A DNA stretch of 64,000 nucleotides. It comes from a virus. Numbering within the stretch: position 1 is the first letter of the stretch; the number at the start of each line of letters is the position of its first letter. The position numbers and the translations under genes were made by a program. The notes beneath the pieces are model-generated. The model was not told the DNA's origin. It did no database searches and was given only the letters and a program-made list of their open reading frames with translations. Positions 10,980 to 58,585 of the stretch are shown here, piece by piece. Where the stretch lies: positions 192,001 through 256,000 of the IMG/VR virus record IMGVR_UViG_3300045988_179268. One strand, 5' to 3'.

Positions 10980-10980
10980 A

Positions 10981-11039: not shown

Positions 11040-11070
11040 CCCGACCATATACTACACTCTCCGGCAGTGC

Positions 11071-11125: not shown

Positions 11126-11141
11126 AGGCTAGTCGCCTACT

Positions 11142-28438: not shown

Positions 28439-28537
28439 CGTCACAGTGGCGTGTAGGGGTGATTGAGTGGCATAAAACCTGCAATCACCCCTATGCGCAG
28501 AAACACACCTGCATATTCCACGGAAGAAGGCTCACAT

Positions 28538-29671: not shown

Positions 29672-29746
29672 ACCCCTGTATGGTGGCGCTAACCCTAAAT
29701 CTAGGTAAGAGTTAGTGCCACCATACGCGACACACCAAAGGAAACC

Positions 29747-30832: not shown

Positions 30833-30858
30833 CCCCCATACGAAAGGCATCCATTGCA

Positions 30859-31971: not shown

Positions 31972-32095
31972 GCCGTATAAGCAAAGAGCTTTACAGTGTA
32001 CCCCAGATTGTGTACAATAGATACATAATCTGGGGTACACTTATGTGACACCCCTACAGTTCACTTATTGCAACCGTACACAAAGGAGGAGTTTC

Positions 32096-33277: not shown

Positions 33278-33354
33278 TATAGCTGAGTGTTTTTGTGGCG
33301 GGCAACCCCCTTTCTCGCGGTGGAGTTGCCCGCCACAACTATGCACACAACATA

Positions 33355-33365
33355 TGTGGTACAGT
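33355..33365 (+). promoter_or_regulatory. promoter motif
   Basis: TGTGGTACAGT. Confidence 0.6.
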
Positions 33366-33415
33366 ATAATTGTATCCATGTTGGAGAAATATTCAGAGAA
33401 ATTAGAGGCAGGAAA

Positions 33416-38229: not shown

Positions 38230-39384
38230 ATGCCGTCCAAGGAACTTCCTGTAAAGGTAGGCAAGCTTAAAGTCTACGTTCATCTCAAAGTAAATGACCG
38301 CAAGGTGCAAGACTCCATGCTGGAGTACTACAACGCATACATTAAAGTATGCAACCTAGCCAGCAAAGTCGCATACACCCTCAACACGGTAAGCGTGAAC
38401 CGAATCCACGCCCGCGTAAAGAGCGACGCGCGATTCTACGAAGAACAGCACCCTGGAGTACTAGACCGCGCCATTGACGCAGTAACCAAAGACTACGCAA
38501 ATCACGTGGCAGGCGTGAATAAATTCCCCGAAGCACGCACATACAGCGTCCACGACATCCCTGTATGTCAGGACACTGATTACGACTTCATTCCGCTGGG
38601 CAATAATCGACATGGCGTGGAACTCTACCTTGCTAACCGTAGTAGCGGATTCCCTATCACCGTACAGTTCTTGGCGGAATGGCTAAACCTACCCAATGGT
38701 CACGCATACTCCACAACCGCCTCTACCGCCGAACTGTCGTTCGACCACAAGCTAGGTTGGCTCCTTAAGTACGACATGTACACTGTACAGAATACCGTAG
38801 TGGGCATTGACCTGGGCACACGTTTCCTTGCCGTCACCTACGACGGTAAGGAAACTAAGTTCTATCGTGGCGGTGACACCCCCCTCCGGCATGAGATGGC
38901 GACGTATAGCCGCCGCCGCCTAAGTCTCAAGGAGAAGGGTACTCGTAGCGCCCGTAAGCGACTCAAAGCCCTCTCAGACGACTGGCATAAGCATCTGGAA
39001 GCAAATATTAAGAAGACTGTCAAGGAAATTCTTAAGGGTGCTGAGCCTCATACTGTGTTCGCTCTAGAAGATATTGCCGCATCTCCAGAATTGCGAGAGC
39101 GATTCGCCAAAGAAGACGTGGGTAAGCTACCGACCGTCATCTTTGACATGTTCATCCGAACCCTCCGAGATGAGGCGCAGAAACGTGGACATATTTTTAT
39201 TACCGTTTCTAAGGCAAAAACTAGCACAAGGTGCCCCGCATGTGGTATGATTATTAAAAGCAACAGGAAGCAGGGCAAACACATCTACGGATGCTCCTGT
39301 GGTTTCAGGTCTAACGACGACCGTGTAGCCGCAATTAATATCCGTGAACGTGGCATTGTTCGGCTAACTGAACGCCTAGCATAA
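38230..39384 (+). CDS. tnpB: TnpB-family RNA-guided endonuclease (384 aa)
   Basis: GIDLGTRF, ALEDI, zinc ribbon CPACG..CSCG, NDDRVAAINI. Confidence 0.85.
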   Translation: MPSKELPVKVGKLKVYVHLKVNDRKVQDSMLEYYNAYIKVCNLASKVAYTLNTVSVNRIHARVKSDARFYEEQHPGVLDRAIDAVTKDYANHVAGVNKFPEARTYSVHDIPVCQDTDYDFIPLGNNRHGVELYLANRSSGFPITVQFLAEWLNLPNGHAYSTTASTAELSFDHKLGWLLKYDMYTVQNTVVGIDLGTRFLAVTYDGKETKFYRGGDTPLRHEMATYSRRRLSLKEKGTRSARKRLKALSDDWHKHLEANIKKTVKEILKGAEPHTVFALEDIAASPELRERFAKEDVGKLPTVIFDMFIRTLRDEAQKRGHIFITVSKAKTSTRCPACGMIIKSNRKQGKHIYGCSCGFRSNDDRVAAINIRERGIVRLTERLA

Positions 39385-47585: not shown

Positions 47586-47996
47586 ATGACCAAGCAGACC
47601 ACCGAAACCCCCAAGGTAATCAAGCTCACCGACGAATGGGGCGACCCTCTCATCGACGGAGACGGAAACCTCCTCGTACCCAAGGAAATTAAGGTAGGCG
47701 CAACCATCAAATTCGACACTTTCCGCAACGATGGTACCCGCGTAACCTCAACCCGCTTCATCACCGGCGGCAACAGTACCCGCCTCACCATTAAGGATTA
47801 CACCGGAAAGCCCGACGGCACCCTCAACGTAATCCAGTGCAACCGCGAATGCTTCACCTGCTGGGAAGACACTGACGACGAACTCCACAGCGAAGAAAAC
47901 TGCACCGGAGCCGTAACCTTCGACGGACTCGAATACATCAACGGTCAGGACATGAACTTCGGACAGGCACTCAATATCACTGTAACCAACCCCTAA
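47586..47996 (+). CDS. hypothetical protein
   Basis: ATG 47586 after GAAAGG; promoter at 47491-47520. Confidence 0.6.
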   Translation: MTKQTTETPKVIKLTDEWGDPLIDGDGNLLVPKEIKVGATIKFDTFRNDGTRVTSTRFITGGNSTRLTIKDYTGKPDGTLNVIQCNRECFTCWEDTDDELHSEENCTGAVTFDGLEYINGQDMNFGQALNITVTNP

Positions 47997-48025
47997 ATAC
48001 AGGGACTTTGCTTACACGTAAGATG

Positions 48026-48036
48026 TGTGCTACACT
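48026..48036 (+). promoter_or_regulatory. promoter motif (drives E2/E3)
   Basis: TGTGCTACACT. Confidence 0.55.
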
Positions 48037-48046
48037 AAAAATATCA

Positions 48047-48189
48047 CACCTCGCCTGTGAGAGACGGGAGAGGTGGATAATCTAAACGGATAGGTGGCAT
48101 CGGTTACCTGTCAAGACCAGGATAACTGGCATCAGACAGTTTGAGGGTCACCGTTAAGGAAAATCCTTAACTCATCTACCGAATGACTC
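48047..48189 (+). ncRNA. E-module E2
   Basis: begins 11 nt after the -10 at 48026-48036; P1, TCTAAACGG, TCAAGACCAGGA, TTGAGGGTCACCGT, P4 GTTAAGGA-AAA-TCCTTAAC; ends CTCATCTACCGAATGACTC. Confidence 0.7.
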
Positions 48190-48231
48190 TGGGTAATACG
48201 GATTAGCGGGGTAATCACCCTTGCCAGGAAG

Positions 48232-48333
48232 CGTATTCTCCGTACACGCGGGGATGACTCCGGTTTCTGCCCCGTAAATGGGTTAGCCTCATGGCACGCC
48301 GCATCGTATTCTCCGTACACGCGGGGATGACTC
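48232..48333 (+). CRISPR. two identical type I-E-like repeats, non-canonical 44-nt interval
   Basis: CGTATTCTCCGTACACGCGGGGATGACTC at 48232-48260 and 48305-48333 (29/29 identical); the interval itself contains a degenerate repeat, TTTCTGCCCCGTAAATGGGTTAGCCTC. Confidence 0.5.
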
Positions 48334-48447
48334 TATAAACGGGTGGGCAACATTCGTGTCGCACGTCAAGACCAGGAGAGTTAGGTAACTAGCTTGAGGG
48401 TCACCGCCTAGTGAAACACTAGACCCACCCCGCGCAGGGGATGGCTC
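48334..48447 (+). ncRNA. E-module E3 (lacks P1; a full repeat sits in its place)
   Basis: TATAAACGG, GTCAAGACCAGGA, TTGAGGGTCACCG, CTAGTG-AAA-CACTAG; ends CCCACCCCGCGCAGGGGATGGCTC. Confidence 0.65.
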
Positions 48448-48568
48448 CCCGAGTCAGCAACAGGCAACCCAGACATCTTAACCGCGTTCCCTATATACGC
48501 GGGATGACTCACAGGCTCACCCTCACATACTCGCTGGGTGGATTCTCCAACATACGTAGGGCTGGCTC
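48419..48568 (+). CRISPR. mini-array: E3 terminal repeat plus two degenerate repeats
   Basis: repeat ends at 48447, 48510 and 48568 (periods 63 and 58 nt); repeats CGCGTTCCCTATATACGCGGGATGACTC and GGATTCTCCAACATACGTAGGGCTGGCTC. Confidence 0.45.
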
Positions 48569-48604
48569 ATACCAGGTGTGTGACACAGATAACACAAAAT
48601 CAGG

Positions 48605-48634
48605 TTGCGTACCATGAAAAACATGTGGTACACT
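48605..48634 (+). promoter_or_regulatory. tRNA/E operon promoter
   Basis: TTGCGT, 18-nt spacer, TGTGGTACACT; upstream palindrome TGTGTGACACA. Confidence 0.7.
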
Positions 48635-48718
48635 TGATATATAAGGCGCGGGGGTTTGAGAAAGCCGCCAATGCAAAGCTCATTGATAACTATATAGGGT
48701 AAAAACTATTGAACATAA

Positions 48719-48802
48719 GCCGCAGTGCCTGAGTTTGGAAAAAGGGGCTGACTGTAAATTAGCTGTCGTTCGACTACGGGGGTTCAAATCCCTCCTGCGG
48801 CA
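48719..48802 (+). tRNA. tRNA-Tyr(GTA)
   Basis: acceptor GCCGCAG/CTGCGGC, anticodon arm GCTGA-CTGTAAA-TTAGC, long variable arm, T-loop TTCAAAT; no encoded CCA. Confidence 0.85.
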
Positions 48803-48831
48803 CGCAACACATCATTAAGATGTGTTCTATA

Positions 48832-48990
48832 TACCTCGCCTGTTGGTGAGATGGGAGAGGTAGTAAAAATAAACGGGTAGGCAACAGTGTTTGTCACGCC
48901 AAAACCTGAAAAGCAGGTTATAGCCACAGGGCAATCTGGGCGCTCCTTGACCGTGCAACAAGGGGTCACCAAAAATCAAAGCACGGGTAT
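48832..48990 (+). ncRNA. E-module E4 (divergent variant)
   Basis: P1 TACCTCGCC..GGGAGAGGTA and AATAAACGGG are conserved; the central part is replaced by other hairpins; GGGGTCACC is retained; 3' end unclear. Confidence 0.4.
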
Positions 48991-49020
48991 GTTCAACACG
49001 TCAGCATAATTGAGTGCTGT

Positions 49021-49174
49021 GACCTCGACCTGCGAGGGGCGGGGAGGTCGAAAAAATAAATGGGCAGGCGGCTACCAGCTATCCTGTCAAGACCAGGAAG
49101 GCTGACGACAGTCAGCTGGAGGGTTACCGTCTAGTGAAACGCTAGACCCAACTCATATAGAGGAAATCCGGCTC
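49021..49174 (+). ncRNA. E-module E5
   Basis: P1 GACCTCGACCTGC/GCGGGGAGGTC (compensatory changes), TCAAGACCAGGA, GGAGGGTTACCGTC, P4; terminal hairpin CTC-ATATA-GAG covaries with CCC..GGG in other copies. Confidence 0.7.
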
Positions 49175-49260
49175 AGTATATATCAGGGGTCACTTTCCCA
49201 TACACGCGAGGATGGCTCCATAGCGGGATGGTTGAAACCTCCCTACATGCGGGATGGCTC
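49146..49260 (+). CRISPR. degenerate repeat cluster after E5 (13-15-nt intervals)
   Basis: repeat-like units end at 49174, 49218 and 49260; ..CCCATACACGCGAGGATGGCTC and ..CCCTACATGCGGGATGGCTC. Confidence 0.35.
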
Positions 49261-49287
49261 CCGCAACAAAATAATACGAAACCAGGC

Positions 49288-49316
49288 TTGCAAACCACAA
49301 AAACATGTGGTACACT
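49288..49316 (+). promoter_or_regulatory. tRNA/E operon promoter
   Basis: TTGCAA, 17-nt spacer, TGTGGTACACT. Confidence 0.7.
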
Positions 49317-49327
49317 GGTTTACATAG

Positions 49328-49398
49328 GCCCATCTAGCTTAATGTAAAGCAACAGTCTTCAAAACTGTGAGATGTCGGTTCAAGTCCGGCGGTGGGTG
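49328..49398 (+). tRNA. tRNA with UCA anticodon (UGA-reading; suppressor or Trp-like)
   Basis: acceptor GCCCATC/GGTGGGT, D arm GCTT/AAGC, anticodon arm ACAGT-CTTCAAA-ACTGT, T arm GTCGG-TTCAAGT-CCGGC, discriminator G. Confidence 0.8.
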
Positions 49399-49447
49399 CT
49401 TGCAAGTAACAAAACCGGAGTTCTAGCCGAAAGTGGCGTAACTTGCG

Positions 49448-49529
49448 GCGTGTAATGACCACGAAGGCAAGTGGCGAGCCCAGTTAGAATGGGCACGTAA
49501 TAGTAGGGGTCGGTTCCCTTCTACACGCT
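49448..49529 (+). tRNA. non-canonical tRNA-like element, possible pseudo-tRNA
   Basis: perfect 7-bp terminal stem GCGTGTA/TACACGC and an anticodon-like arm GCCCA-GTTAGAA-TGGGC (TAG), but the D and T arms do not fold canonically. Confidence 0.3.
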
Positions 49530-49534
49530 CTACA

Positions 49535-49674
49535 CTCCTCGTCTGCGAGAGATTGGGAGAGGAGGATAATAAAAACGGGCGCTAACCGCGTCAAGACCAG
49601 GAAAGCCAACGATAGTCAGCTTGAGGGTCACCGTCTAGTGAAACACTAGACCCAGCCCACGTAAGGGGCGGCTC
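49535..49674 (+). ncRNA. E-module E6
   Basis: P1 CTCCTC../..GAGGAG (compensatory changes), AAAAACGGG, TCAAGACCAGGA, TTGAGGGTCACCGTC, P4; ends CCCAGCCCACGTAAGGGGCGGCTC. Confidence 0.7.
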
Positions 49675-49728
49675 AAGAGCAGTGCTTTTACACAGCAAAG
49701 GTCGTGGGTTCAAATCCCTCACGAACCA
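49675..49728 (+). pseudogene. 3' fragment of a Tyr-type tRNA abutting E6
   Basis: GTCGTGGGTTCAAATCCCTCACGAACCA matches the T arm and acceptor 3' strand pattern of the Tyr tRNAs, but no complementary 5' acceptor strand lies upstream. Confidence 0.5.
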
Positions 49729-49756
49729 CACTTGGTACCCTTTTATAGGGCATCAA

Positions 49757-49829
49757 GTCTCTTTAGCTCAGATAGTAGAGCGCCCGCCTGAAGAGCGGGA
49801 GGTCGCCAGTGCAAGCCTGGCAGGAGACA
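49757..49829 (+). tRNA. tRNA-Phe(GAA)
   Basis: acceptor GTCTCTT/AGGAGAC, anticodon arm CCCGC-CTGAAGA-GCGGG, T arm GCCAG-TGCAAGC-CTGGC. Confidence 0.85.
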
Positions 49830-49861
49830 CGTAAGCCCACCTATTTTTTCGGTGGTGCATT

Positions 49862-50004
49862 ACCTCTCGCCTGTGAGAGACGGGAGAGAGTGAAAACGGA
49901 CGGGCGGCTTCGGTTGCCTGTCAAGACCAGGAGAATTAACTTCGGTTAATTTGAGGGTTACCGTCTAGTAAAATACTTAGACCCACCCATGTATGGGAAG
50001 GCTC
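49862..50004 (+). ncRNA. E-module E7
   Basis: all conserved blocks present; P3 AATTAAC-TTCG-GTTAATT; ends CCCACCCATGTATGGGAAGGCTC. Confidence 0.7.
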
Positions 50005-50064
50005 ATCCAGTCTACAGCTAAGAAAGCGCGCGGTGCAGTATTTCTTATATACACGGGATGGCTC
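49976..50064 (+). CRISPR. one-spacer unit after E7
   Basis: terminal repeat ends at 50004, 33-nt spacer 50005-50037, repeat GTATTTCTTATATACACGGGATGGCTC at 50038-50064. Confidence 0.45.
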
Positions 50065-50202
50065 TCTTACAGTCTGGTTCCTTTTTTGCGCCCATGTGGG
50101 CTGACTGGGAATTACTTATATGAAGAAAGAAGAGATGTGGCATCACTAACATGCACTGCTTTATCTCTGTTTTTTCAGTGACACAGATAACACAAAATCG
50201 AG

Positions 50203-50232
50203 TTGCAAACCACGAAAAACATGTGGTACACT
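50203..50232 (+). promoter_or_regulatory. tRNA/E operon promoter
   Basis: TTGCAA, 18-nt spacer, TGTGGTACACT. Confidence 0.7.
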
Positions 50233-50314
50233 TTATATATGAGACGTGAGGGCTTGAAAGAGTCCCCGACGCAAAAGCTCATTGAAAACCTTATAGAGTA
50301 AACTATTTAATCAA

Positions 50315-50398
50315 GCCGTTGTATCCAAGTGGTCAAAGGAAACTGTCTGTAAAACAGTCGCTATCGAAGCTTCGTGGGTTCGACTCCCTCCGGCGGCA
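50315..50398 (+). tRNA. tRNA-Tyr(GTA), second copy
   Basis: acceptor GCCGTTG/CGGCGGC, anticodon arm ACTGT-CTGTAAA-ACAGT, long variable arm, T-loop TTCGACT. Confidence 0.85.
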
Positions 50399-50469
50399 CG
50401 AGACACATTACTAGAATGTGTTTAGCTACATCATCTATACGTGCTATAGTTGTTGCAGTAAATATTTTT

Positions 50470-50540
50470 GGCGTACTAGTTTAGTGGTAAAACCTCAGTC
50501 TTCCAAACTGATGATACGGGTTCGATTCCCGTGTACGCCT
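50470..50540 (+). tRNA. tRNA-Gly(TCC)
   Basis: acceptor GGCGTAC/GTACGCC, anticodon arm TCAGT-CTTCCAA-ACTGA, T arm ACGGG-TTCGATT-CCCGT, discriminator T. Confidence 0.85.
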
Positions 50541-50544
50541 CTAT

Positions 50545-50683
50545 GCTCCTCGCCTGTGAGAGACGGGAGAGGAGCTAAATCTAAACGGACACTCACGTGT
50601 CAAGACCAGGAGAGTTGGGCAACCTACTCAAGGGTTACCGTCAAAGTAAAGCTTTGGCACGCTCCGCATAAGGTCGATGACTT
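50545..50683 (+). ncRNA. E-module E8
   Basis: starts 5 nt after tRNA-Gly; P1 GCTCCTCGCCTGT/ACGGGAGAGGAGC, TCTAAACGG, TCAAGACCAGGA, AAGGGTTACCGTC; degenerate end ..GGTCGATGACTT. Confidence 0.65.
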
Positions 50684-50818
50684 AGAGTAAGTATCTACAT
50701 GTTCTAAGTCATCGTGCGGGATTCGCGTCTCACTAAATCCTGCGTGTCTAAGGATTCTCCTTCTCATTAGAGAGACTATAGATGCGTTTTACATAATCTG
50801 AAATAACTAACACTTTAA

Positions 50819-50900
50819 GCGCTTGTGGCGGAATTGGCAGACGCGGCAGACTTAGAATCTGTTGTCAGCAGACGTGTGGGTTCGAGTCCCACCAGGCGCA
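50819..50900 (+). tRNA. tRNA-Leu(TAG)
   Basis: acceptor GCGCTTG/CAGGCGC, anticodon arm GCAGA-CTTAGAA-TCTGT, long variable arm, T arm GTGGG-TTCGAGT-CCCAC. Confidence 0.85.
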
Positions 50901-50930
50901 CTTGGTGTCCACAAGTGCATGTGGGTGCCC

Positions 50931-51052
50931 GCTTCCGTATCCAAGCTAGGTTAAGGGGAGCGTCTTTCATGAGCCTTCTGCACATAACGGCTATGGGAGC
51001 GCTTGCGGTGCATGAGAGTGCCCGCGCGCCGGTTCAAATCCGGTCGGAAGCA
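50931..51052 (+). tRNA. over-long (122 nt) tRNA-like element, anticodon not assignable
   Basis: acceptor GCTTCCG/CGGAAGC and T arm GCCGG-TTCAAAT-CCGGT are canonical, with a plausible D arm; about 35 extra nt lie in the anticodon/variable region. Confidence 0.35.
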
Positions 51053-51084
51053 CGTAACGCCACCTACTATGGTGGCTTGTTACT

Positions 51085-51227
51085 CACCTCGCCTATGAGA
51101 GATGGGAGAGGTGAATAATCTAAACGGACACTAACCATGTCAAGACCAGGAGAACTAGCTTACGCTGGTTAGAGGGTCACCGTCTAACAAAATGTTTAGA
51201 CCCGCCTCGTATTTATGGGGTAGGCTT
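51085..51227 (+). ncRNA. E-module E9
   Basis: P1 CACCTCGCCTAT/ATGGGAGAGGTG (G-C to A-T compensation); all blocks present; ends CCCGCCTCGTATTTATGGGGTAGGCTT. Confidence 0.7.
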
Positions 51228-51309
51228 TCAGCCTCATTAGGTAACCTATTGAGGCACCCTTATTGCAATAGGGGAGCCTTCGGGCTTCTGGCTTTTATCA
51301 CTCATTCTT

Positions 51310-51339
51310 TTGCGAGATTGAGTGTTGGTGTGGTATACT
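51310..51339 (+). promoter_or_regulatory. tRNA operon promoter
   Basis: TTGCGA, 18-nt spacer, TGTGGTATACT. Confidence 0.65.
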
Positions 51340-51358
51340 TATCATGCTTACTCTTTAG

Positions 51359-51438
51359 GCGCTTGTGGCGGAACTGGCAGACGCGGCGGACTTAAAATCC
51401 GCTTCTTCGGAGTGTGGGTTCGAGTCCCACCTGGCGCA
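51359..51438 (+). tRNA. tRNA-Leu(TAA)
   Basis: anticodon arm GCGGA-CTTAAAA-TCCGC, long variable arm, T arm GTGGG-TTCGAGT-CCCAC. Confidence 0.85.
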
Positions 51439-51468
51439 CGCAACCACCCTTAACTGGGAGGTTTATAT

Positions 51469-51542
51469 TCCCTTGTAGCTCAATTGGCAGATGCGCCCGA
51501 CTGTTAATCGGGAGGTTACTGGTTCGAGTCCAGTCTGGGGAG
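51469..51542 (+). tRNA. tRNA-Asn(GTT)
   Basis: acceptor TCCCTTG/CTGGGGA, anticodon arm CCCGA-CTGTTAA-TCGGG, T arm ACTGG-TTCGAGT-CCAGT. Confidence 0.8.
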
Positions 51543-51594
51543 CTTACGTCACTTATGCGTGGCGTTGATACCTTAGCTTTTTTGTTAAGGTTCT

Positions 51595-51670
51595 GGTCTG
51601 TTAGCTCAGTGTTGGTTAGAGCACCGCCCTGTCACGGCGGAGGCCGCGGGTTCGAGCCCCGTACAGACCG
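51595..51670 (+). tRNA. tRNA-Asp(GTC)
   Basis: acceptor GGTCTGT/ACAGACC, anticodon arm CCGCC-CTGTCAC-GGCGG, T-loop TTCGAGC. Confidence 0.85.
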
Positions 51671-51692
51671 CGTATAGTTTTTTTGGCTATGC

Positions 51693-51831
51693 CTCTCGCC
51701 TGTGAGAGACGGGAGAGAGTAAAAACGGACAGGTAGCTTCGGTTACCTGTCAAGACCAGGATAGCGGGGTAACCTGCTTGAGGGTCACCGTCTGACAAAA
51801 TGTTAGACCCAGCCCACGTAGGGGATGGCTC
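51693..51831 (+). ncRNA. E-module E10
   Basis: follows tRNA-Asp; all blocks present; ends CCCAGCCCACGTAGGGGATGGCTC; followed by a 32-nt spacer and a full repeat. Confidence 0.75.
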
Positions 51832-51892
51832 CTTGGACTCGAAGTTTTGACGAATAGGGAGTCCGTTTTCCCAGCACACGCGGGAGTGGCTC
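51803..51892 (+). CRISPR. one-spacer unit with exact 29+32 nt geometry after E10
   Basis: terminal repeat ends at 51831, spacer 51832-51863 (32 nt), repeat CGTTTTCCCAGCACACGCGGGAGTGGCTC at 51864-51892; period 61 nt. Confidence 0.6.
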
Positions 51893-51932
51893 ACCGTGAC
51901 CTCCTGTGTGATACAGGTAACATAAAAACGGC

Positions 51933-51962
51933 TTGCATACCATAGAAACTATATGGTACACT
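51933..51962 (+). promoter_or_regulatory. tRNA operon promoter
   Basis: TTGCAT, 18-nt spacer, TATGGTACACT; upstream palindrome CCTGTGTGATACAGG. Confidence 0.65.
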
Positions 51963-52029
51963 TGCTATATATGGTTCGGGGAAACCTGAAAGACCGATAC
52001 GCTATTTCTTAATTGAATGAATTTTTTTT

Positions 52030-52103
52030 GCCTCCTTAGCTCAGTTGGTTAGAGCATCTGTCTTGTAAACAGAGGGTCGCCGGTTCGACTCCGGCAGGAG
52101 GCT
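52030..52103 (+). tRNA. tRNA-Thr(TGT)
   Basis: acceptor GCCTCCT/AGGAGGC, anticodon arm TCTGT-CTTGTAA-ACAGA, T arm GCCGG-TTCGACT-CCGGC. Confidence 0.9.
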
Positions 52104-52139
52104 CGCTAAAGTAGATAGTTTTACTGTTTGCTTTTATGA

Positions 52140-52212
<73 letters not shown>

Positions 52213-52242
52213 CTCACACGCCTGTTGCAGGTTGTGTGTTAA

Positions 52243-52315
52243 GCGCCTTTAGCTCAGTCGGTAGAGCAGTGGACTTTTAATCCTCGGGTCGCGGGTTCGA
52301 GCCCCGCAGGGCGCA
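52243..52315 (+). tRNA. tRNA-Lys(TTT)
   Basis: acceptor GCGCCTT/AGGGCGC, anticodon loop CTTTTAA, T arm GCGGG-TTCGAGC-CCCGC. Confidence 0.85.
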
Positions 52316-52552
52316 CGTAGCATGAAGGGATGTAGCTAATCCTTTCGTAATACACCGGATAAACACTATTCAGAAGGTCGTAGGTTAAAATCCTGCCACG
52401 TGCCACATTGCACGTGTAGCTCGGTGTTATAAGAGCGTCTGGACGGTGCCGGTTTAAGCCATACACAGGGGAAGTGACCTACACACTTCCATAGGGGTAG
52501 CGCCCCGGCTGTCTTGTAGGATAAGGGTACCTCTTAGCGGGGGTGCTCTCAT

Positions 52553-52628
52553 GGTCTGTTAGCTCAGTGTTGGTTAGAGCACCGCCCTGTCACGGCGGAG
52601 GTCGCGGGTTCAAGTCCCGTACAGACCG
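52553..52628 (+). tRNA. tRNA-Asp(GTC), second copy
   Basis: near-identical to 51595-51670; T-loop TTCAAGT. Confidence 0.85.
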
Positions 52629-52666
52629 CTTATATGGCGCACTGACCGCCTAAATAGTCAGTCTAA

Positions 52667-52740
52667 GCCCTTGTAACTCAGCTGGTTAGAGTGCCGCTCT
52701 GATAAGGCGGATGCCGGTGGTTCAAGTCCACCCAAGGGCA
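52667..52740 (+). tRNA. tRNA-Ile(GAT)
   Basis: acceptor GCCCTTG/CAAGGGC, anticodon arm CCGCT-CTGATAA-GGCGG, T arm GGTGG-TTCAAGT-CCACC. Confidence 0.9.
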
Positions 52741-52742
52741 CT

Positions 52743-52814
52743 GTGTGTGAAGCCGGATAGCGAGGCGCTTGCTTGTGGCGCAAGTAGTAGCGGGTGCGAT
52801 TCCCGTCACACACC
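52743..52814 (+). tRNA. tRNA-His(GTG)
   Basis: acceptor GTGTGTG/CACACAC, anticodon arm CTTGC-TTGTGGC-GCAAG, T arm GCGGG-TGCGATT-CCCGT, discriminator C. Confidence 0.85.
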
Positions 52815-52816
52815 CC

Positions 52817-52891
52817 GCTCCCCTAGTTCAGTCTGGATAGAACGCCGTGCTACGAACGCGGAGGTGGCAGGTTCAAATCCTGCGGGGAGCA
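52817..52891 (+). tRNA. tRNA-Arg(ACG)
   Basis: acceptor GCTCCCC/GGGGAGC, anticodon arm CCGTG-CTACGAA-CGCGG, T arm GCAGG-TTCAAAT-CCTGC. Confidence 0.9.
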
Positions 52892-52924
52892 CGTAACAGC
52901 ACCTATTATGGTAGTGTGTTATAT

Positions 52925-53070
52925 ACCTCGCCTGTGAGAGACGGGAGAGGTGGTAAATCTAAACGGATAGGTGGCATCGGCTACCTGTCAAGACCAGGAT
53001 GGCGGGGCAACCTGCTTGAGGGTCACCGTCTAGTGAAACACTCAGACCCAACCCACATAAGGGAAAACGT
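52925..53070 (+). ncRNA. E-module E11
   Basis: follows tRNA-Arg(ACG); all blocks present; degenerate end CCCACATAAGGGAAAACGT. Confidence 0.65.
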
Positions 53071-53120
53071 AAGGTGAATCTATTTTGCGGCTTGACCCGG
53101 TATTAAGCCTAGTCAGGAAG

Positions 53121-53205
53121 ATTTTTCCCTACGCATGTGAGGCTGGCTCTACTCAGCCTAACATGCGTAGGCGACGTTTTCTCCGTACACGCGAGGGGAT
53201 GGCTC
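53121..53205 (+). CRISPR. two degenerate repeats after E11
   Basis: ATTTTTCCCTACGCATGTGAGGCTGGCTC at 53121-53149 and GTTTTCTCCGTACACGCGAGGGGATGGCTC at 53176-53205; 26-nt interval; the first repeat and the interval form a long inverted repeat. Confidence 0.4.
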
Positions 53206-53288
53206 CGGCTAGGATACGCCCTTCAAGGCGGCGCTACTTTCTTTACATACATAGAAAGTCAGCTTTTATCAATATGCTCACAACATAT

Positions 53289-53361
53289 GCCCCCATCGTC
53301 TAGATGGTTAGGATACTACCCTTTCAAGGTAGAGATGCGGGTTCGAGTCCCGTTGGGGGTA
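53289..53361 (+). tRNA. tRNA-Glu(TTC)
   Basis: acceptor GCCCCCA/TGGGGGT, anticodon arm CTACC-CTTTCAA-GGTAG, T arm GCGGG-TTCGAGT-CCCGT. Confidence 0.85.
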
Positions 53362-53496
53362 CGCAAGCTTCAAGAGTTATATTTGTAGCTTTTGGAAGCT
53401 GGCATGGGGTCATGCTGTTTTTATAGTTATGGTCACAATTTAACCTTTCGTTACATCGAGTAGCGGCTCGCCGTCTTGTTGGTTGCCGCTATTCTT

Positions 53497-53570
53497 ATCC
53501 CAGTAGCTCAGTGGATAGAGCGCCCGCCTCCTAAGCGGGGTCGTCACAGGTTCGACTCCTGTCTGGGATA
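53497..53570 (+). tRNA. tRNA-Arg(CCT)
   Basis: acceptor ATCCCAG/CTGGGAT, anticodon arm CCCGC-CTCCTAA-GCGGG, T arm ACAGG-TTCGACT-CCTGT. Confidence 0.85.
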
Positions 53571-53604
53571 CTTTTAGGTAAACCTGTTTTTTAGGTTTAC
53601 CGTT

Positions 53605-53677
53605 GCCTCCTTAGCTCAGCGGATAGAGTACCCGATTCCGAGTCGGGTGGTCACAGGTTCGATTCCTGTAGGAGGCG
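53605..53677 (+). tRNA. tRNA-Arg(CCG)
   Basis: acceptor GCCTCCT/AGGAGGC, anticodon arm CCCGA-TTCCGAG-TCGGG, T arm ACAGG-TTCGATT-CCTGT. Confidence 0.85.
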
Positions 53678-53678
53678 C

Positions 53679-53750
53679 GTCCCCGTGGTCTAATCGGGAG
53701 GATGCCGCTCTCTCAAGGCGGCGATGCGGGTTCGAGTCCCGTCGGGGGTA
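53679..53750 (+). tRNA. tRNA-Glu(CTC)
   Basis: acceptor GTCCCCG/CGGGGGT, anticodon arm CCGCT-CTCTCAA-GGCGG, T arm GCGGG-TTCGAGT-CCCGT. Confidence 0.8.
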
Positions 53751-53874
53751 CGCTCATGCGCGGCTTTTTGTTGCGTGTGTTGTGGTGACTTTCGGTAGTT
53801 ACCTTTTTTGTACGGCTTGGGCTGGGTTTGGTTTTTCCTCACTTTTGCCTTACTCAGGTTTCTGGTCGTGTTTC

Positions 53875-53947
53875 GCGCTTTTAGCTCAGTTGGTAGAGCA
53901 AGGGACTCTTAATCCCTGGGTCGCGGGTTCGAGCCCCGCAGGGCGCA
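53875..53947 (+). tRNA. tRNA-Lys(CTT)
   Basis: acceptor GCGCTTT/AGGGCGC, anticodon arm AGGGA-CTCTTAA-TCCCT, T arm GCGGG-TTCGAGC-CCCGC. Confidence 0.85.
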
Positions 53948-53977
53948 CGTAGCACATTCCTTTTGGGTGTGTTTACT

Positions 53978-54128
53978 CACCTCGCCTGTGAGGGACTGGG
54001 AGAGGTGGCTAATCTAAACGGATGGGTAGCTTTGATTGCCTGTCAAGACCAGGAGAATCTGCCTTTGGTGGGTTTGAGGGTCACCGTCTAATAAAATATT
54101 AGACCCAACCCTGTGCAGGGGATGGCTC
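53978..54128 (+). ncRNA. E-module E12
   Basis: follows tRNA-Lys(CTT); all blocks present; ends CCCAACCCTGTGCAGGGGATGGCTC. Confidence 0.7.
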
Positions 54129-54175
54129 GACAAAAAAGTCAGGCGGTGTTTTCCCTGTATACGCGGGGATGACTC
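54100..54175 (+). CRISPR. E12 terminal repeat plus one repeat, 18-nt interval
   Basis: repeat TGTTTTCCCTGTATACGCGGGGATGACTC at 54147-54175. Confidence 0.4.
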
Positions 54176-54206
54176 ACCGCTAATATGTACAATTCCATAC
54201 CTTTTT

Positions 54207-54279
54207 GCCCTAGTAGCTCAGGGGATAGAGCAGTCGCCTTCTAAGCGATTGGTCGCAGGTTCGAATCCTGCCTGGGGCA
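54207..54279 (+). tRNA. tRNA-Arg(TCT)
   Basis: acceptor GCCCTAG/CTGGGGC, anticodon arm GTCGC-CTTCTAA-GCGAT, T arm GCAGG-TTCGAAT-CCTGC. Confidence 0.85.
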
Positions 54280-54306
54280 CGCTATATGCCTCAAGGTGTG
54301 TCGCAA

Positions 54307-54459
54307 CACCTCGCCTGTGAGGGACTGGGAGAGGTGGTTAATCTAAACGGGTGGGTGGCTTTGGTTGCCTGCCAAGACCAGGAAAGCTGGCTTCGGTCAG
54401 TTTGAGGGTCACCGTCAAAGTAAAACTTTGGCTCATCTACCGCATAAAGTGAATGGGAA
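54307..54459 (+). ncRNA. E-module E13
   Basis: follows tRNA-Arg(TCT); all blocks present; end of the E2 type, CTCATCTACCGCATAAAGTGAATGGGA. Confidence 0.7.
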
Positions 54460-54495
54460 ATGTGGGTTGGCGAGGTGTTTATCCTTGTCAATAAG

Positions 54496-54638
54496 GATTT
54501 TCCCCGTACACGCGGGGATGGCTCCTGGACCCTCAAACTTGCTAGAGTAGAGCACGTATTTTCCCCGTACACGCGGGGATGGCTCTAACGTCAAGCCTAT
54601 TAGCGTTTACGTTTTCCCTTGTATGCGTGGGGTGACTC
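54496..54638 (+). CRISPR. three-repeat, two-spacer type I-E-like mini-array
   Basis: R1 54496-54524 and R2 54557-54585 are 28/29 identical (ATTTTCCCCGTACACGCGGGGATGGCTC). Spacer 1 is 32 nt (period 61). Degenerate terminal repeat at 54610-54638 after a 24-nt spacer. Confidence 0.65.
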
Positions 54639-54669
54639 ACAATAACCCTTTTATATATTCACAACATAT

Positions 54670-54743
54670 GCCCCCGTGGTCTAATTGGTCAGGATGCCAC
54701 TTTCTCAAGGTGGGTGGTACGGGTTCGAGTCCCGTCGGGGGTA
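54670..54743 (+). tRNA. tRNA-Glu(CTC), second copy
   Basis: acceptor GCCCCCG/CGGGGGT, anticodon arm CCACT-TTCTCAA-GGTGG. Confidence 0.8.
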
Positions 54744-54775
54744 CGTTCATGCGCGGTTTTTGTTGCGTGTGTTTT

Positions 54776-54848
54776 GCGCTTTTAGCTCAGTTGGTAGAGC
54801 AACGGACTCTTAATCCGTGGGTCGCCGGTTCGAGTCCGGCAGGGCGCA
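54776..54848 (+). tRNA. tRNA-Lys(CTT), second copy
   Basis: anticodon arm ACGGA-CTCTTAA-TCCGT, T arm GCCGG-TTCGAGT-CCGGC. Confidence 0.85.
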
Positions 54849-54878
54849 CGTAGCACATTCCTTTTGGGTGTGTTTACT

Positions 54879-55029
54879 CACCTCGCCTGTGAGGGACTGG
54901 GAGAGGTGGCTAATCTAAACGGATGGGTAGCCTTTGGGTTGCCTGTCAAGACCAGGAAAATTAGCTTAGGCTGATTCGAGGGTCACCGTCTGGCAAAATG
55001 GCAGACCCACCCTTTGTAGGGGGCGGCTC
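54879..55029 (+). ncRNA. E-module E14
   Basis: follows the second tRNA-Lys(CTT); near-duplicate of E12; ends CCCACCCTTTGTAGGGGGCGGCTC. Confidence 0.7.
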
Positions 55030-55098
55030 AGTGTTTGAGAATGAGGGTTGCGCCCTCAGCGAGTATTTCCCGTAAATATAATTACTATTTCACATTGT

Positions 55099-55172
55099 TC
55101 CCTTGTAGCTCAATTGGCAGATGCGCCCGACTGTTAATCGGGAGGTTGTAGGTTCGAGTCCTTCCGGGGGAG
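55099..55172 (+). tRNA. tRNA-Asn(GTT), second copy
   Basis: 5' two-thirds identical to 51469-51542; acceptor TCCCTTG/CGGGGGA. Confidence 0.8.
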
Positions 55173-55188
55173 CTTTTAATATTGTGTT

Positions 55189-55225
55189 ACGCCCTTGCTG
55201 GTTTTTGCCGGTGAGGGCGTTTTTG
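55189..55225 (+). terminator. terminator closing the tRNA island
   Basis: ACGCCCT..AGGGCGT stem followed by TTTTT. Confidence 0.7.
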
Positions 55226-55236
55226 TTGTATAATTG

Positions 55237-55247
55237 GTGTACCACAT
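55237..55247 (-). promoter_or_regulatory. promoter motif on the minus strand facing the tRNA island
   Basis: reverse complement reads TGTGGTACACC; a plus-strand TATAAT at 55230-55235 overlaps the region. Confidence 0.4.
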
Positions 55248-55274
55248 ATTTTTTAGTTGAAAGGTTTTCATAGA

Positions 55275-56309
55275 ATGTTTGTTTGCGAGGATGTGTCCCC
55301 TGTTGGTTCTGGCAAGGTTCAGTCTATTTCTTTGGGGGAGTCATTTTTGCCTGGTGACGTGATGGATGTATTGAATCCGTCTATTCCGAGTGCGGCGGCG
55401 CGTATGGTATTGATTTATAAGCGTGATGTTGTCTCTGCTGGTGCGCAGTTGGTGGGCGTTTTCACTGTTTCTGCCGACCCTGCTACTTTTGCGGGTGGTG
55501 TTGATGGTCAGGGTATTATTCCAGGTGTTGCCTCTGGTTCGCTTGTTGAGCGTGTCGTTGAGAGTGTTCCTGTGCAGGGTGGTGATTACGCCTCACATGC
55601 GTTGAAGGTTGCGTCCTGGTTGTCTAATTCTGGTGTGCCGCTGGGTTATGGTGGTGATTTGCGCAATGGTTTTGCTTTTACTGCGTTTGAATCTGCTGAG
55701 GGCGCATGTGCTGTGCCTGATGCGTTTGAGTTTTTGGATGCGGCGGGTGTGTCTGTCCCTTGGTATAACGAGGGTAACTATTTCGGGTACACTGTTTCTG
55801 GTGTTAGTAAGATTAGTTCCCTTAAGGGTGTGGGTTCTGTGTTGGGCGACCTTGGTGACGTTGGTGTGGACTCCCGCGCGCTGAGTCAGGGGGTTGATGG
55901 TGCTGGCGACAATGCTTATGTCGCGTGGTTGCTGTGGGGTGTTGATGATGGTGGTCGTGTTGGGGATGTGCATCTTGTGGCTGGTGACCCGACGCTAAAT
56001 GGGTTCCCGACTGTGGGGTTGCCGTTTATTAAGGGCGCTCCTCAGCTTGTGGGTGTCCCGGTTGAGGAGTATGGTTATCGTTTGGTGACGAAAATGTTCA
56101 CTAATTTCACTTCTGTTTTTGTCACTATTAAGTCCCCTTTGTTTAATGCTAATCGTGTTTGTTATGATGCTGGTAAGGGTTTGTATTCTTTGCCTGTTGT
56201 GGTGACTTTGGGGTCTGAGTCGCCATTGTGGGTGCCTGGCGATTTGGGGGCGCGTATGCGCTATGTTAAGGCTGTTTTGGGGCGCGATGGGGCTTTAAAT
56301 ATCTTGTAA
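55275..56309 (+). CDS. G/V-rich paralog A in the GT-biased island
   Basis: ATG 55275 after GAAAGG (track TTG 55257); C-terminal YDAGKGLYSLPVVV matches the two downstream genes. Confidence 0.55.
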   Translation: MFVCEDVSPVGSGKVQSISLGESFLPGDVMDVLNPSIPSAAARMVLIYKRDVVSAGAQLVGVFTVSADPATFAGGVDGQGIIPGVASGSLVERVVESVPVQGGDYASHALKVASWLSNSGVPLGYGGDLRNGFAFTAFESAEGACAVPDAFEFLDAAGVSVPWYNEGNYFGYTVSGVSKISSLKGVGSVLGDLGDVGVDSRALSQGVDGAGDNAYVAWLLWGVDDGGRVGDVHLVAGDPTLNGFPTVGLPFIKGAPQLVGVPVEEYGYRLVTKMFTNFTSVFVTIKSPLFNANRVCYDAGKGLYSLPVVVTLGSESPLWVPGDLGARMRYVKAVLGRDGALNIL

Positions 56310-56388
56310 ATAGCCTTTTTGGGGAGCTTGTCATACTTTTGTGTGGCAGGCTCCTTTTTGTGTGTTTTCCGGGTTTTGGGCGGGTTGG

Positions 56389-56399
56389 TGTGGTAGACT
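56389..56399 (+). promoter_or_regulatory. promoter motif
   Basis: TGTGGTAGACT. Confidence 0.55.
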
Positions 56400-56462
56400 G
56401 GTGGTGGGGTTGCGTCGGGTCTTGACGTTGCCCCCTTTTTTCTATCTTTTTCTACTATTTTT

Positions 56463-57455
56463 TTGGAGGTTGTTGTGGCTTTTGATTGGTTGAGGGGCAT
56501 TTTTGGTGGTTCTGGTGATGGTGAGCCTGTTGAGGGTGGTGCTTTTAGGGAGTCGGGGGTTTCTGATGCTGATGTGATTGCTGAGTTGGAGGCTTCGTTG
56601 GGTGCGCCGTCTGGTGGTGTTGATGTTTCGCGTCTGGTTAGTTGTGAGTTTGGGTTGCCGGGGCATGTGTTGTTTTTGTTTAAGCCTGTGGGTGGTGGGT
56701 TTGTTTTGGATGGTGTGGTGTGTGTTGGTGTGAGTGGTCGTGGTGTTGGTGGTGTTGGTAATGGTCGTGGGGTGGTTTGTTTTGGGCAGGAGCCTGTGTT
56801 GGAGGTGTTGGGTGGTTCTAGGGTTTATTCTGTGGAGGATAATTTTAGTGAGGTTGGGCGTGGGTTGTATGGTGAGGTTTTGAGTGAGGGGTGTTTGTTT
56901 GTTGGGGTTGGTGAGTCTGGTGGTTTGGATTTGTTGAGGGTTGTTGAGTCGGATGGTGTTGATTTTATTTTGGGTGACCCGTCGTTGGTGGGTTTGGAGG
57001 TGGAGTCTTTTGATGGGGGTGAGTTTGTGTGTGTGATTGCGCATAATGTGCGTGTTGATTTGTCTGCTTCGGTTTCTGTTGGTGAGGCTGTTGGTTCTGT
57101 GGGTGATGTGGGTTCTGTGGCGCGTGAGTATGTTGGTGTTGAGGGTGCTATGGTCGGTTGGTTCTGTTGGTGGGCTTCGGCGGCTGGCGTTGAGTGGGGG
57201 TATGTTTTGGGTGACCCGCGTGGGGGTGGTTCGCCGGTGATGGATGTTCCGCTTGGCGGTATTTCGGGGTTGTTTAGTGGGCTTATTGCTGGTGTTGGCA
57301 GTATTGAGGATGTTGGTGTTAGGGTTGCTGGTTCGTTTAGGAATACTCGTTTCGGTAATGTTGAGTGGGTTGCTCCTTTGTATGATGATGGTCGTGCTTA
57401 TTATGATGAGGCGGCGCAGTTGTATGCGATGCCGGTGGTGACTGTTCTGCATTAG
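56463..57455 (+). CDS. G/V-rich paralog B in the GT-biased island (start uncertain, GTG 56475 possible)
   Basis: open frame in a stretch that is about 85 percent G+T; C-terminal YDDGRAYYDEAAQLYAMPVV. Confidence 0.5.
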   Translation: MEVVVAFDWLRGIFGGSGDGEPVEGGAFRESGVSDADVIAELEASLGAPSGGVDVSRLVSCEFGLPGHVLFLFKPVGGGFVLDGVVCVGVSGRGVGGVGNGRGVVCFGQEPVLEVLGGSRVYSVEDNFSEVGRGLYGEVLSEGCLFVGVGESGGLDLLRVVESDGVDFILGDPSLVGLEVESFDGGEFVCVIAHNVRVDLSASVSVGEAVGSVGDVGSVAREYVGVEGAMVGWFCWWASAAGVEWGYVLGDPRGGGSPVMDVPLGGISGLFSGLIAGVGSIEDVGVRVAGSFRNTRFGNVEWVAPLYDDGRAYYDEAAQLYAMPVVTVLH

Positions 57456-57577: not shown

Positions 57578-58585
57578 TTGTTGTCTTCGTCGTTCATGAA
57601 GGACCCGAATGTTGCTAGTTCGCCTGTTGATGGTCAGGTGTACAATATTGTTCCTTTGGAGGATTTGAATGAGTTTGACCGGGTGGATACGAGTCATTTC
57701 GTGTCTGAGCCTACGTTGGATTCGTTGGATGGGTTGGCTAATTTTGCGTTAGGTTCATCGTCTGAGTTCCTGTTCTTGTTTGAGGATTTGGACGGGGTTC
57801 CGGTTCTTTCTGGGATTGTGTTTGCGGTGACTACGCCTAACGGTGTTGGTCGAGCTATCTTGCCTGCGCATGACCGTATTGTGTCTAGCGTGTGGGATGA
57901 GGTTTGTAAGCGTTCCTCTTCAACTTCGCGTGAGCGTCTGTCTGTGGCGTGTGCCGAGGTACTGGTTGAGCGTGGCACAGCGTTCATGTCTGCTTATACT
58001 GATGCGTTGCCTATTGGTGTTGCTAGGAAGTTGCGTGGTAAGAATAATGGGCGTGAGGTGACAGCCCAGTATGTGTTGGATAACTATGGTTTGATGCCTC
58101 AAGATGCTGTGAAAGCACATGCTGTTGGGGTGTCTGCTGACTTCATGGTTTCGGATGCGGTGAAGGTTCTTTATCGGAAGGATTCTGAGGCTATTAACCC
58201 GGTGTCTGCGGGTCGTCCTGGGTGGGCGCATGTGGGTTGGTTGCAGTGGCGTATGAGTCCGACTACAGGTCTTGAGTTAGGATTGGGCTTTGGTGCTCCT
58301 TTTGGGGAGGCTGATTCTTTGCCTTACGTGCCGCTGGTTCCCGTCTTTAAAGACACCTTTAAGCGTATGGTTATGGCGTATTCTCCTTCTGAGGGTGCCG
58401 TCGGTGCTACATTTATGTCCATCATTCAGGATGGCACGTTTAAGGGTAACGGTGACGAGTTCACTATTGGTGGCGCACTTTATAATGACGGCAGGTACGC
58501 TTATGATTCCGCTTCGGGGGTTTATGCTATGCCTATTATTATTGAACAGCCGCGCGCCACGGCTAAGGTGTTCATGGTGAACTAG
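57578..58585 (+). CDS. paralog C in the GT-biased island (start uncertain)
   Basis: GGGAGG upstream; C-terminal YNDGRYAYDSASGVYAMPII. Confidence 0.55.
   Translation: MLSSSFMKDPNVASSPVDGQVYNIVPLEDLNEFDRVDTSHFVSEPTLDSLDGLANFALGSSSEFLFLFEDLDGVPVLSGIVFAVTTPNGVGRAILPAHDRIVSSVWDEVCKRSSSTSRERLSVACAEVLVERGTAFMSAYTDALPIGVARKLRGKNNGREVTAQYVLDNYGLMPQDAVKAHAVGVSADFMVSDAVKVLYRKDSEAINPVSAGRPGWAHVGWLQWRMSPTTGLELGLGFGAPFGEADSLPYVPLVPVFKDTFKRMVMAYSPSEGAVGATFMSIIQDGTFKGNGDEFTIGGALYNDGRYAYDSASGVYAMPIIIEQPRATAKVFMVN

Follow-up and report, generated by a model that had tools for sequence, protein, structure and literature searches.

Type I-E-like CRISPR mini-arrays coupled to a conserved structured RNA in the tRNA cluster of an uncultivated phage

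The window analysed here is a stretch of 64,000 nucleotides from an uncultivated phage of about 319 kb. According to ARAGORN it contains 26 tRNA genes, 25 of which lie at 48.7-55.2 kb. Inside this cluster, between tRNA-Arg(TCT) and tRNA-Glu(CTC), a conserved structured element that we call the E-module is followed by a short array of repeats and spacers. The features of this locus are as follows.

54207-54280, plus strand: tRNA-Arg(TCT), called by ARAGORN and matching the Rfam tRNA model at 70.4 bits; upstream of the module, with a 24-nt linker
54305-54433, plus strand: E-module copy of the array (covariance-model match 54305-54449, 143.2 bits, E 6e-39)
54307-54336, plus strand: E-module helix P1, a nested hairpin
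54350-54373, plus strand: E-module helix P2
54376-54410, plus strand: E-module helix P3, enclosed by a GACC/GGUC clamp
54414-54431, plus strand: E-module helix P4
54434-54495, plus strand: leader-like conserved segment (62 nt) from module to R1, CTCATCTACCGCATAAAGTGAAT...GGTGTTTATCCTTGTCAATAAGGA
54496-54524, plus strand: repeat R1, GATTTTCCCCGTACACGCGGGGATGGCTC, type I-E class, 44.5 bits under the repeat model
54525-54556, plus strand: spacer 1, CTGGACCCTCAAACTTGCTAGAGTAGAGCACG, 32 nt
54557-54585, plus strand: repeat R2, TATTTTCCCCGTACACGCGGGGATGGCTC, 44.8 bits under the repeat model, 61 nt from R1
54586-54609, plus strand: spacer 2, 24 nt, below the canonical size
54610-54638, plus strand: degenerate terminal repeat R3, CGTTTTCCCTTGTATGCGTGGGGTGACTC, 28.9 bits under the repeat model, R3 itself being in the training set of that model
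54670-54744, plus strand: tRNA-Glu(CTC), called by ARAGORN, the downstream boundary of the array

Direct reading of the DNA bears out the array as it was described in the initial annotation. R1 and R2, which are GTTTTCCCCGTACACGCGGGGATGGCTC-like, agree at 28 of 29 positions, and both direct reading and a repeat search find their last 28 nt fully identical; spacer 1 is 32 nt long and the period from R1 to R2 is 61 nt. Each of the two repeats carries the hairpin CCCCGT/ACAC/GCGGGG, with 6 bp including one G-U, and then ATGGCTC, which in R1 corresponds to a predicted Cas6e-type hairpin with a 7-nt handle. The degenerate R3 indeed follows a 24-nt spacer (54586-54638), and the array does sit between tRNA-Arg(TCT) and tRNA-Glu(CTC) in the same direction, all on the plus strand by ARAGORN. 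It had also been called the cleanest array in the window, and R1 and R2 are the two top-scoring repeats under the repeat model. The 27-nt repeat core occurs five times within 3 mismatches, always on the plus strand, against 0.00 expected from 100 shuffles. The covariation of the E-module and the recurrence of module plus repeats, about 14 times in the window, were absent from that annotation.

About nine repeat clusters lie in the tRNA region, the array under study among them, and each is 3' of an E-module copy. The elements of this larger system, together with a unit located elsewhere in the window, are listed below.

47990-55090, plus strand: larger system, in which 13 E-module copies and their repeat hairpins are interspersed among 25 tRNA genes
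48045-48188, 49019-49164, 49533-49668, 49861-49999, 50544-50675 and 51083-51218, plus strand: module copies
51690-51825, 52922-53064, 53976-54121, 54305-54449 and 54877-55023, plus strand: module copies
48830-48958, plus strand: variant module copy
48307-48441, plus strand: module copy (78.6 bits; 48304-48441 including the repeat) in which a full repeat takes the place of P1 and is fused directly to the TAAACGG segment of the module
48231-60, 48304-33, 48482-510, 48539-68, 49189-218 and 49234-60, plus strand: other repeat hairpins
50036-64, 51863-92, 53120-49, 53174-205 and 54146-75, plus strand: other repeat hairpins
10780-11130, plus strand: stand-alone module unit, with the module at 10808-10955 and repeat hairpins and no spacer (10950-10979)

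The stand-alone unit is not part of the tRNA cluster and precedes a terminator-like palindrome. On either side of it (10706-11041) the 3' end of ORF 9825-10763 is directly, though imperfectly, duplicated (about 44 of 57 nt identical), which looks like the insertion of a cassette at the end of that ORF. Compared with the window at 58895/58896, the related phage ERZ773046.1 (L166, 4800-5215) has an extra block of about 410 nt, placed precisely where the tRNA-Leu(CAA) 3' end would otherwise meet TCCTGTAACGG. This block consists of a linker hairpin, a module, a leader, a repeat-spacer-repeat unit and a tRNA-Lys, and module, array and tRNA therefore behave as a cassette that can be gained or lost.

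Promoter-like elements of the form TTGCnnACCA..TGGTACACT are found by pattern at 48605, 50203 and 51933, by inspection at 49287, and also at about 48010; elements of this kind, TTGCnnACCA..(A)AAAACATGTGGTACACT, divide the cluster of tRNA genes into several units, and the first module (48045) starts a few bases after one of them. A generic promoter scan did not pick up the recurring TTGCnn..TGGTACACT elements. Among the tRNAs, a 72-nt gene with anticodon TCA (49328-49399) is reported as tRNA-SeC by ARAGORN, but it is too short for a selenocysteine tRNA and is thus probably an opal suppressor; the ORFs of the window read normally with code 11. Three further tRNA-like pieces have no ARAGORN call: a 122-nt full-model Rfam tRNA match with a long insertion (50931-51052), a partial tRNA (49670-49720), and, in the interval from tRNA-Lys to tRNA-Asp, a weak Y-RNA-like (YrlA) match (52352-52458).

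The window has no nucleotide relative among GenBank phages, and protein searches against the same phages returned only a 27% identity to a Herelleviridae Pnkp, or nothing. Its proteins are mostly unannotatable, a resolvase and a VWA-like domain being among the few that Pfam and PHROGs recognise. At 24413-25981 and 34859-36061, a kinase-phosphatase of the Pnkp type (AAA_33 plus Metallophos) and an RNA ligase resembling T4 Rnl1 together suggest a tRNA-repair pair. Six tandem ORFs of 361-438 aa at 27311-34603 look paralogous and have no Pfam family, and four of them that were tested (including 27311-28438, 28463-29671 and 33287-34603) have no PHROGs family. In the element at 16092-17644, minus strand, a 438-aa ORF that looks TnpB-like from its position and on inspection, and that has no Pfam family, is immediately followed by an IS605-orfB-I RNA (195.9 bits); the TnpB-like ORFs at 2194-3750 and 38230-39384, both on the plus strand, have a Cas12f1-like TNB domain. 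None of the three TnpB-like ORFs is linked to an E-module, and the IS element, searched against PLSDB as a clue to the host, gave no match.

The E-module is a genuine covarying RNA family. All 14 copies in the window are on the plus strand, and an alignment of 19 sequences yielded a four-helix consensus with compensatory changes in 20 of the 38 pairs. A covariance model retrieved 145 module copies in 86 loci. Over 147 aligned copies, 96.5% of the cells are standard pairs, the figure being 83.1% for shuffled sequences and 33-47% for slid partners, and double-sided changes occur in 29 of the 38 pairs. The frequency of G-U pairs suggests a structure of the plus-strand RNA; the same abundance of G-U pairs disfavours the module as a DNA-level leader. 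A candidate extra helix, ACGG/CCGU, would close P2 and P3, with both of its sides nearly invariant.

The module is found in huge phages. A pattern scan of IMG/VR located it in two huge viral contigs (306,861 and 360,643 bp), and a scan of metagenome contigs located it in many of 160-360 kb. Nine single 48-nt matches from the first viral scan were taken as chance, and the two that were read are protein-coding sequence. No match of Rfam 15 at E<=1 over 47900-56500 overlaps any module copy; the sub-threshold non-tRNA matches are Plastid-ycf2 and YrlA only, on tRNA genes or at 52165-52873, and at gathering score the window yields tRNAs and IS605-orfB-I only. No database or paper that we searched describes the E-module. 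Two known roles were considered and set aside: no segment of the module is complementary to the repeat on inspection, as would be expected of a tracrRNA, and both the place and the copy number are wrong for a TnpB omega-RNA, the IS605-orfB-I RNA of the window being separate, at 16092-16316.

The module is near-obligately coupled to CRISPR-like elements on its 3' side. After P4, one form continues with a short hairpin and then (A/C/G)TGGCTC, in effect the 3' half of a repeat (R0 type). The other form has a conserved tail of about 60 nt (..AAGTGAAT..CTTGACCAGGyATTTAGCCTAGTCAGGAAG) and then a full repeat. With a crude regular expression, a repeat or leader motif was detected 3' of the module in 107 of 129 copies, compared with 12% of random windows, and most of the modules that it missed also carry such a motif by eye. 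On the 5' side, a same-strand tRNA ends 2-32 nt before the module in 86 of 146 cases (59%), with 84 of these distances at 15-32 nt and the commonest at 26-27 nt. The linker of about 26 nt between tRNA and module holds a small hairpin, for example at 53949-53975 and 52893-52921, whose arms vary between copies with pairing kept (GCACAT..GTGTGT, GCCACC..GGTGGC); the hairpin could belong to the unit as an additional helix, or mark a site of processing.

In the window the repeat model finds 14 significant copies, all on the plus strand and all beside modules, and a further 175 in related metagenomic contigs of 160-360 kb. Among adjacent repeat pairs with a gap of 26-36 nt, the only ones taken into the count, 45 of 60 have a gap of 31 nt, which with the 30-nt repeat model amounts to a 61-nt period. 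Arrays of related phages reach up to 5 repeats, and the first base of the spacer is C in 28 of 42 spacers. The long-form tail of the segment at 54434-54495 also precedes multi-repeat arrays of related phages (..AAGTGAAT..GGTrTTTAsCC..TAGTCAGGAAG). When cellular genomes were scanned with a loose repeat pattern, the last 15 nt of the repeat (ACGCGGGGATGGCTC) proved identical to those of a cellular array with a 61-nt period in Streptoalloteichus tenebrarius (L030), and the repeat of a Kitasatospora array is also close. The only true cellular arrays among the matches listed are L030 and L119, both actinobacterial and with a common 3' half of the repeat; most of the other listed matches are solitary GC-rich hairpins or REP-like repeats. 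The flank of L030 offered no obvious cas genes to use as probes, and tblastn gave nothing. A literature search found no paper on the repeat sequence. By sequence, the repeats belong to the I-E class.

Within the window, half of the gaps between repeats are non-canonical (15-28 or 43 nt). From these gaps, the short spacer 2 and the degenerate R3 we conclude that part of the system has decayed. Irregular gaps and decayed copies would also be expected if the repeats were not CRISPR at all, and were instead processing or stability hairpins of the tRNA operon, or functionless repeated relics, that happen to resemble I-E repeats; similar solitary CCCCG..CGGGGATGACTC hairpins do occur as non-CRISPR repeats in unrelated bacteria. 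Against this explanation speak the 61-nt mode, the replacement of spacer blocks, the AA flanks and the sequence identity to cellular I-E repeats, and we regard it as extremely improbable.

The replacement of spacers is seen in two near-identical phages, L005 (IMG/VR 3300045988_174689) and L139 (ERZ773267.2). They are identical at 229 of 230 positions through the module, the leader and the first repeat, then have two unrelated leader-proximal spacers each, beyond which, starting with the third repeat, no difference is left. A second array pair follows the same pattern. Replacement next to the conserved tail is the classical signature of leader-end acquisition, and it marks the tail as a leader. 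As judged by comparing genomes, arrays of the family gain or lose spacers at the leader end. The spacer turnover that the initial annotation had proposed to look for at syntenic loci was thus found in the family; no orthologue of the array under study was present among the fetched loci, and turnover is accordingly established for its sister arrays only.

Targets were likewise found in the family. Five independent family spacers match non-array sites elsewhere in the clade, in other phages, at 25-30 of 31 nt, and in all five protospacers the flank is AA at positions -2 and -1. One example is spacer s32, which matches a G+T-rich gene of phage L187 at 30 of 31 nt with a GAA flank, while the carrier's own copy of the gene has the flank GAG and mismatches at seed positions 3 and 5. 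Spacers 1 and 2 of the array under study, for which a search of phage and plasmid databases had been suggested, have no match in GenBank phages or PLSDB at E<=10, none in IMG/VR and none among the fetched related loci, and the other spacers of the window have no match in GenBank phages, PLSDB or IMG/VR either. The reading as an I-E-like mini-array therefore draws its support mostly from family-level evidence, namely the 61-nt period, the turnover of spacers and the AA-flanked protospacers.

Two sites of the window itself are matched by spacers of related phages:

58315-58345, minus strand: protospacer-like site in the gene at 57578-58585, 25 of 31 nt matching the L166 (ERZ773046.1) spacer 5049-5079, with 5'-AAA
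50586-50616, plus strand: site inside the module copy at 50544, 26 of 31 nt matching the phage L187 spacer 1837-1867, with 5'-AAA

The L187 spacer matches the E-modules of other phages, the AA flank being supplied by the conserved TAATCTAAACGG of the module. The ERZ773046.1 spacer behind the first of these sites (58345-58315) finds an equally good match in its own genome, which we cannot account for by competition alone. Spacer s37 matches its own carrier genome at 25 of 31 nt, with the AAA flank preserved and no mismatch in the seed, and this fits poorly with pure targeting of competitors. The gene at 57578-58585 is the last of three tandem paralogues (55257-56309, 56463-57455 and 57578-58585) that have an extremely G+T-rich coding strand and no Pfam family; at 56-58 kb the GC skew reaches +0.46 and the AT skew is -0.55. 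Spacers in the arrays of related phages match homologues of these paralogues repeatedly.

Could such self-matches point to crRNAs directed at the phage itself? In a CreA-like arrangement, partial matches would guide binding of Cascade without cutting and so tune phage genes or modules. Besides the self-match of s37, the spacer at 48511-48542 matches 56530-56499 over its first 16 nt except at position 12, where I-E complexes flip the base out. Spacer 1 and the spacer at 48448-48483 are each antisense to module cores over 12 nt (spacer 1 to the core at 54399-54410), 3-4 spacer-module antisense matches of 12 nt or more are observed where 0.39 would be expected, and a single-sequence fold, to which we give little weight, pairs spacer 1 with the module. 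The antisense enrichment is, however, marginal, since up to 3 such matches were obtained in 200 shuffles, the partial matches in the window have no AA flank, and partial self-matches are expected anyway when spacers come from homologous genes of relatives. We therefore consider regulation of this kind a very doubtful explanation of the arrays.

The proteins that would serve these arrays have also to be accounted for. No Pfam Cas family was found in window ORFs of at least 100 aa (64 of about 319 kb), none was recognised by PHROGs, and none is among the Pfam annotations of L255 (about 10 kb more). As there is no adjacent cas operon, we file the array with orphan or viral arrays and not with complete systems. 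The arrays could instead serve a CRISPR-Cas system of the phage's own, encoded in the approximately 255 kb outside the window. Huge phages often encode such systems, sometimes partial, according to two surveys (PMC7162821, PMC12297358), polarised acquisition implies an adaptation module acting on phage DNA, and the survey for cas genes covers 64 of 319 kb plus about 10 kb in L255. Against a system of its own speak the lack of any cas gene in the window or in the Pfam annotations of L255 and the scattering of the arrays through the tRNA cluster and not beside a cas operon; on balance it seems distinctly improbable. A cas-less type I-E mini-array that serves a borrowed host I-E system is, in our judgement, the probable identity of the locus, and the most likely use of the array is to borrow that host system for attacking competing phages.

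The many units that contain no spacer raise the further question of whether the repeats themselves inhibit the host system. As RNA anti-CRISPR decoys of the Racr type, RNAs made at the level of the tRNA operon would soak up host Cas6e or Cascade subunits, and the spacers would be irrelevant. Solitary or degenerate hairpins that continue directly from the module (R0 type) make up many of the units, and no spacer accompanies the stand-alone module and repeat at 10780-11130. Within 7 kb there are at least 15 repeat hairpins, all oriented like the tRNAs, and the spacers of the array under study match no known target. Promoter-driven solitary repeat units inhibit I-F, I-E and other systems in a dose-dependent manner, and even a non-targeting crRNA lowers interference (PMC10651486). 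Nevertheless, a decoy needs no strict 61-nt period, no replacement of spacers at the leader end and no AA-flanked protospacers in rival phages, and as an exclusive explanation we think it unlikely. Decoy and targeting are compatible, so that a decoy effect would be more of a second function.

Validated I-E examples exist among Racr and other solitary repeat units (PMC10651486), and they resemble the present system in having a phage repeat hairpin at the 3' end of a small RNA, the layout of the 10780-11130 unit and of the R0-type units. They differ from it in being a single spacer-less repeat with its own promoter, whereas the array under study has three repeats, two spacers and a leader, and the 5' part here is a conserved fold of 130 nt and not an unstructured stretch that Cas7 could coat.

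For targeting by way of a host system we propose the following course of events. The unit would be co-transcribed with the tRNAs, and 3' processing of the upstream tRNA would free the 5' end of the module. A Cas6e-type endoribonuclease is predicted to cut at the 3' base of each hairpin and to release a 61-nt crRNA made up of the handle AUGGCUC, a 32-nt spacer and the hairpin, while the module would stay attached to the first hairpin wherever one abuts it. Loaded into host Cascade, the crRNA would, together with Cas3, destroy co-infecting related phages, and the carrier would be spared by differences of its own copies in the flanking motif or the seed. New spacers would be inserted at the leader by I-E Cas1-Cas2. 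Abundant phage crRNAs would probably also dilute those of the host. By our own comparison, this mechanism matches documented viral mini-arrays and the cas-less arrays of huge phages.

Viral CRISPR mini-arrays are directed at related viruses by means of Cas proteins of the host (Faure et al. 2019; Medvedeva et al. 2019; see PMC11656645 for a review). As in these, the array has one or two spacers and no cas genes nearby, and family spacers match close viral relatives with the carrier's copy mutated in the flank or the seed. In contrast to them, there are many arrays per genome here, located in a tRNA cluster and each behind a conserved structured RNA, and relatives have up to 5 repeats with clear turnover at the leader end. 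Cas-less compact arrays have been reported in huge phages (Al-Shayeb et al. 2020, PMC7162821) and in oral huge phages of Actinobacteriota (PMC12297358). Phage genomes of 160-360 kb, compact arrays, the targeting of other phages and the relative BNJU01003487 from saliva all fit this group. The difference is again the linkage to tRNAs and to a structured RNA, neither of which is described in the available text of PMC7162821 and PMC12297358; in that of the latter, the oral phage paper, the word 'tRNA' is absent.

Canonical I-E arrays (E. coli K-12, S. thermophilus CRISPR4, the Streptoalloteichus array L030) share with the phage arrays a repeat of 28-29 nt, a 6-bp GC hairpin with a 3' handle of 7-8 nt, the 61-nt period, acquisition at the leader end and an AA-type flanking motif. 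The I-E flanking motif is AAG in E. coli and AA in S. thermophilus. Canonical arrays have an adjacent cas operon and an AT-rich leader with its own promoter, whereas the phage arrays are tiny, have no adjacent cas operon, and have upstream a structured RNA fused to a tRNA. In engineered polycistronic tRNA-guide RNA arrays the guides are placed between tRNAs and their release is helped by tRNA processing. The phage system likewise embeds guide RNAs between tRNAs, but it is natural, and release of its crRNAs is predicted to depend on Cas6e.

The array under study is a member of an already known kind, the cas-less viral mini-arrays, while the E-module and the tRNA-linked layout appear to be new. 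As a working guess, the module could be a stable domain at the 5' end, serving either to protect or favour the phage pre-crRNA or to hold Cas6e. Going beyond this, we tentatively suggest that the E-module possibly represents a new class of structured RNA associated with CRISPR, a 5' domain acting in cis and fused to phage pre-crRNAs, usually right after a tRNA, that gives the phage control over the borrowed I-E system, for example by retention of Cas6e, by favoured loading of phage crRNAs or by inhibition of Cascade. On the same reading, module, leader, array and tRNA would form a portable cassette exchanged between oral huge phages.

As to where such an exchange would take place, the relative BNJU01003487 comes from a human saliva assembly, the nearest cellular repeats among the matches listed are actinobacterial, and oral huge phages of Actinobacteriota with CRISPR arrays targeting other phages have been catalogued (PMC12297358). 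We treat the oral habitat and the actinobacterial host as hints only.

What sets this family apart is the large number of mini-array copies, wired into a tRNA operon and near-obligately coupled to a conserved folded RNA. If the module modulates Cas6e or Cascade, CRISPR immunity would here be subject to a new form of control by RNA, and the system would be a natural counterpart of the engineered tRNA-guide arrays. The turnover at the leader end points to CRISPR adaptation acting on phage genomes, possibly in the human mouth, and thereby makes phage-against-phage warfare within this clade directly testable.
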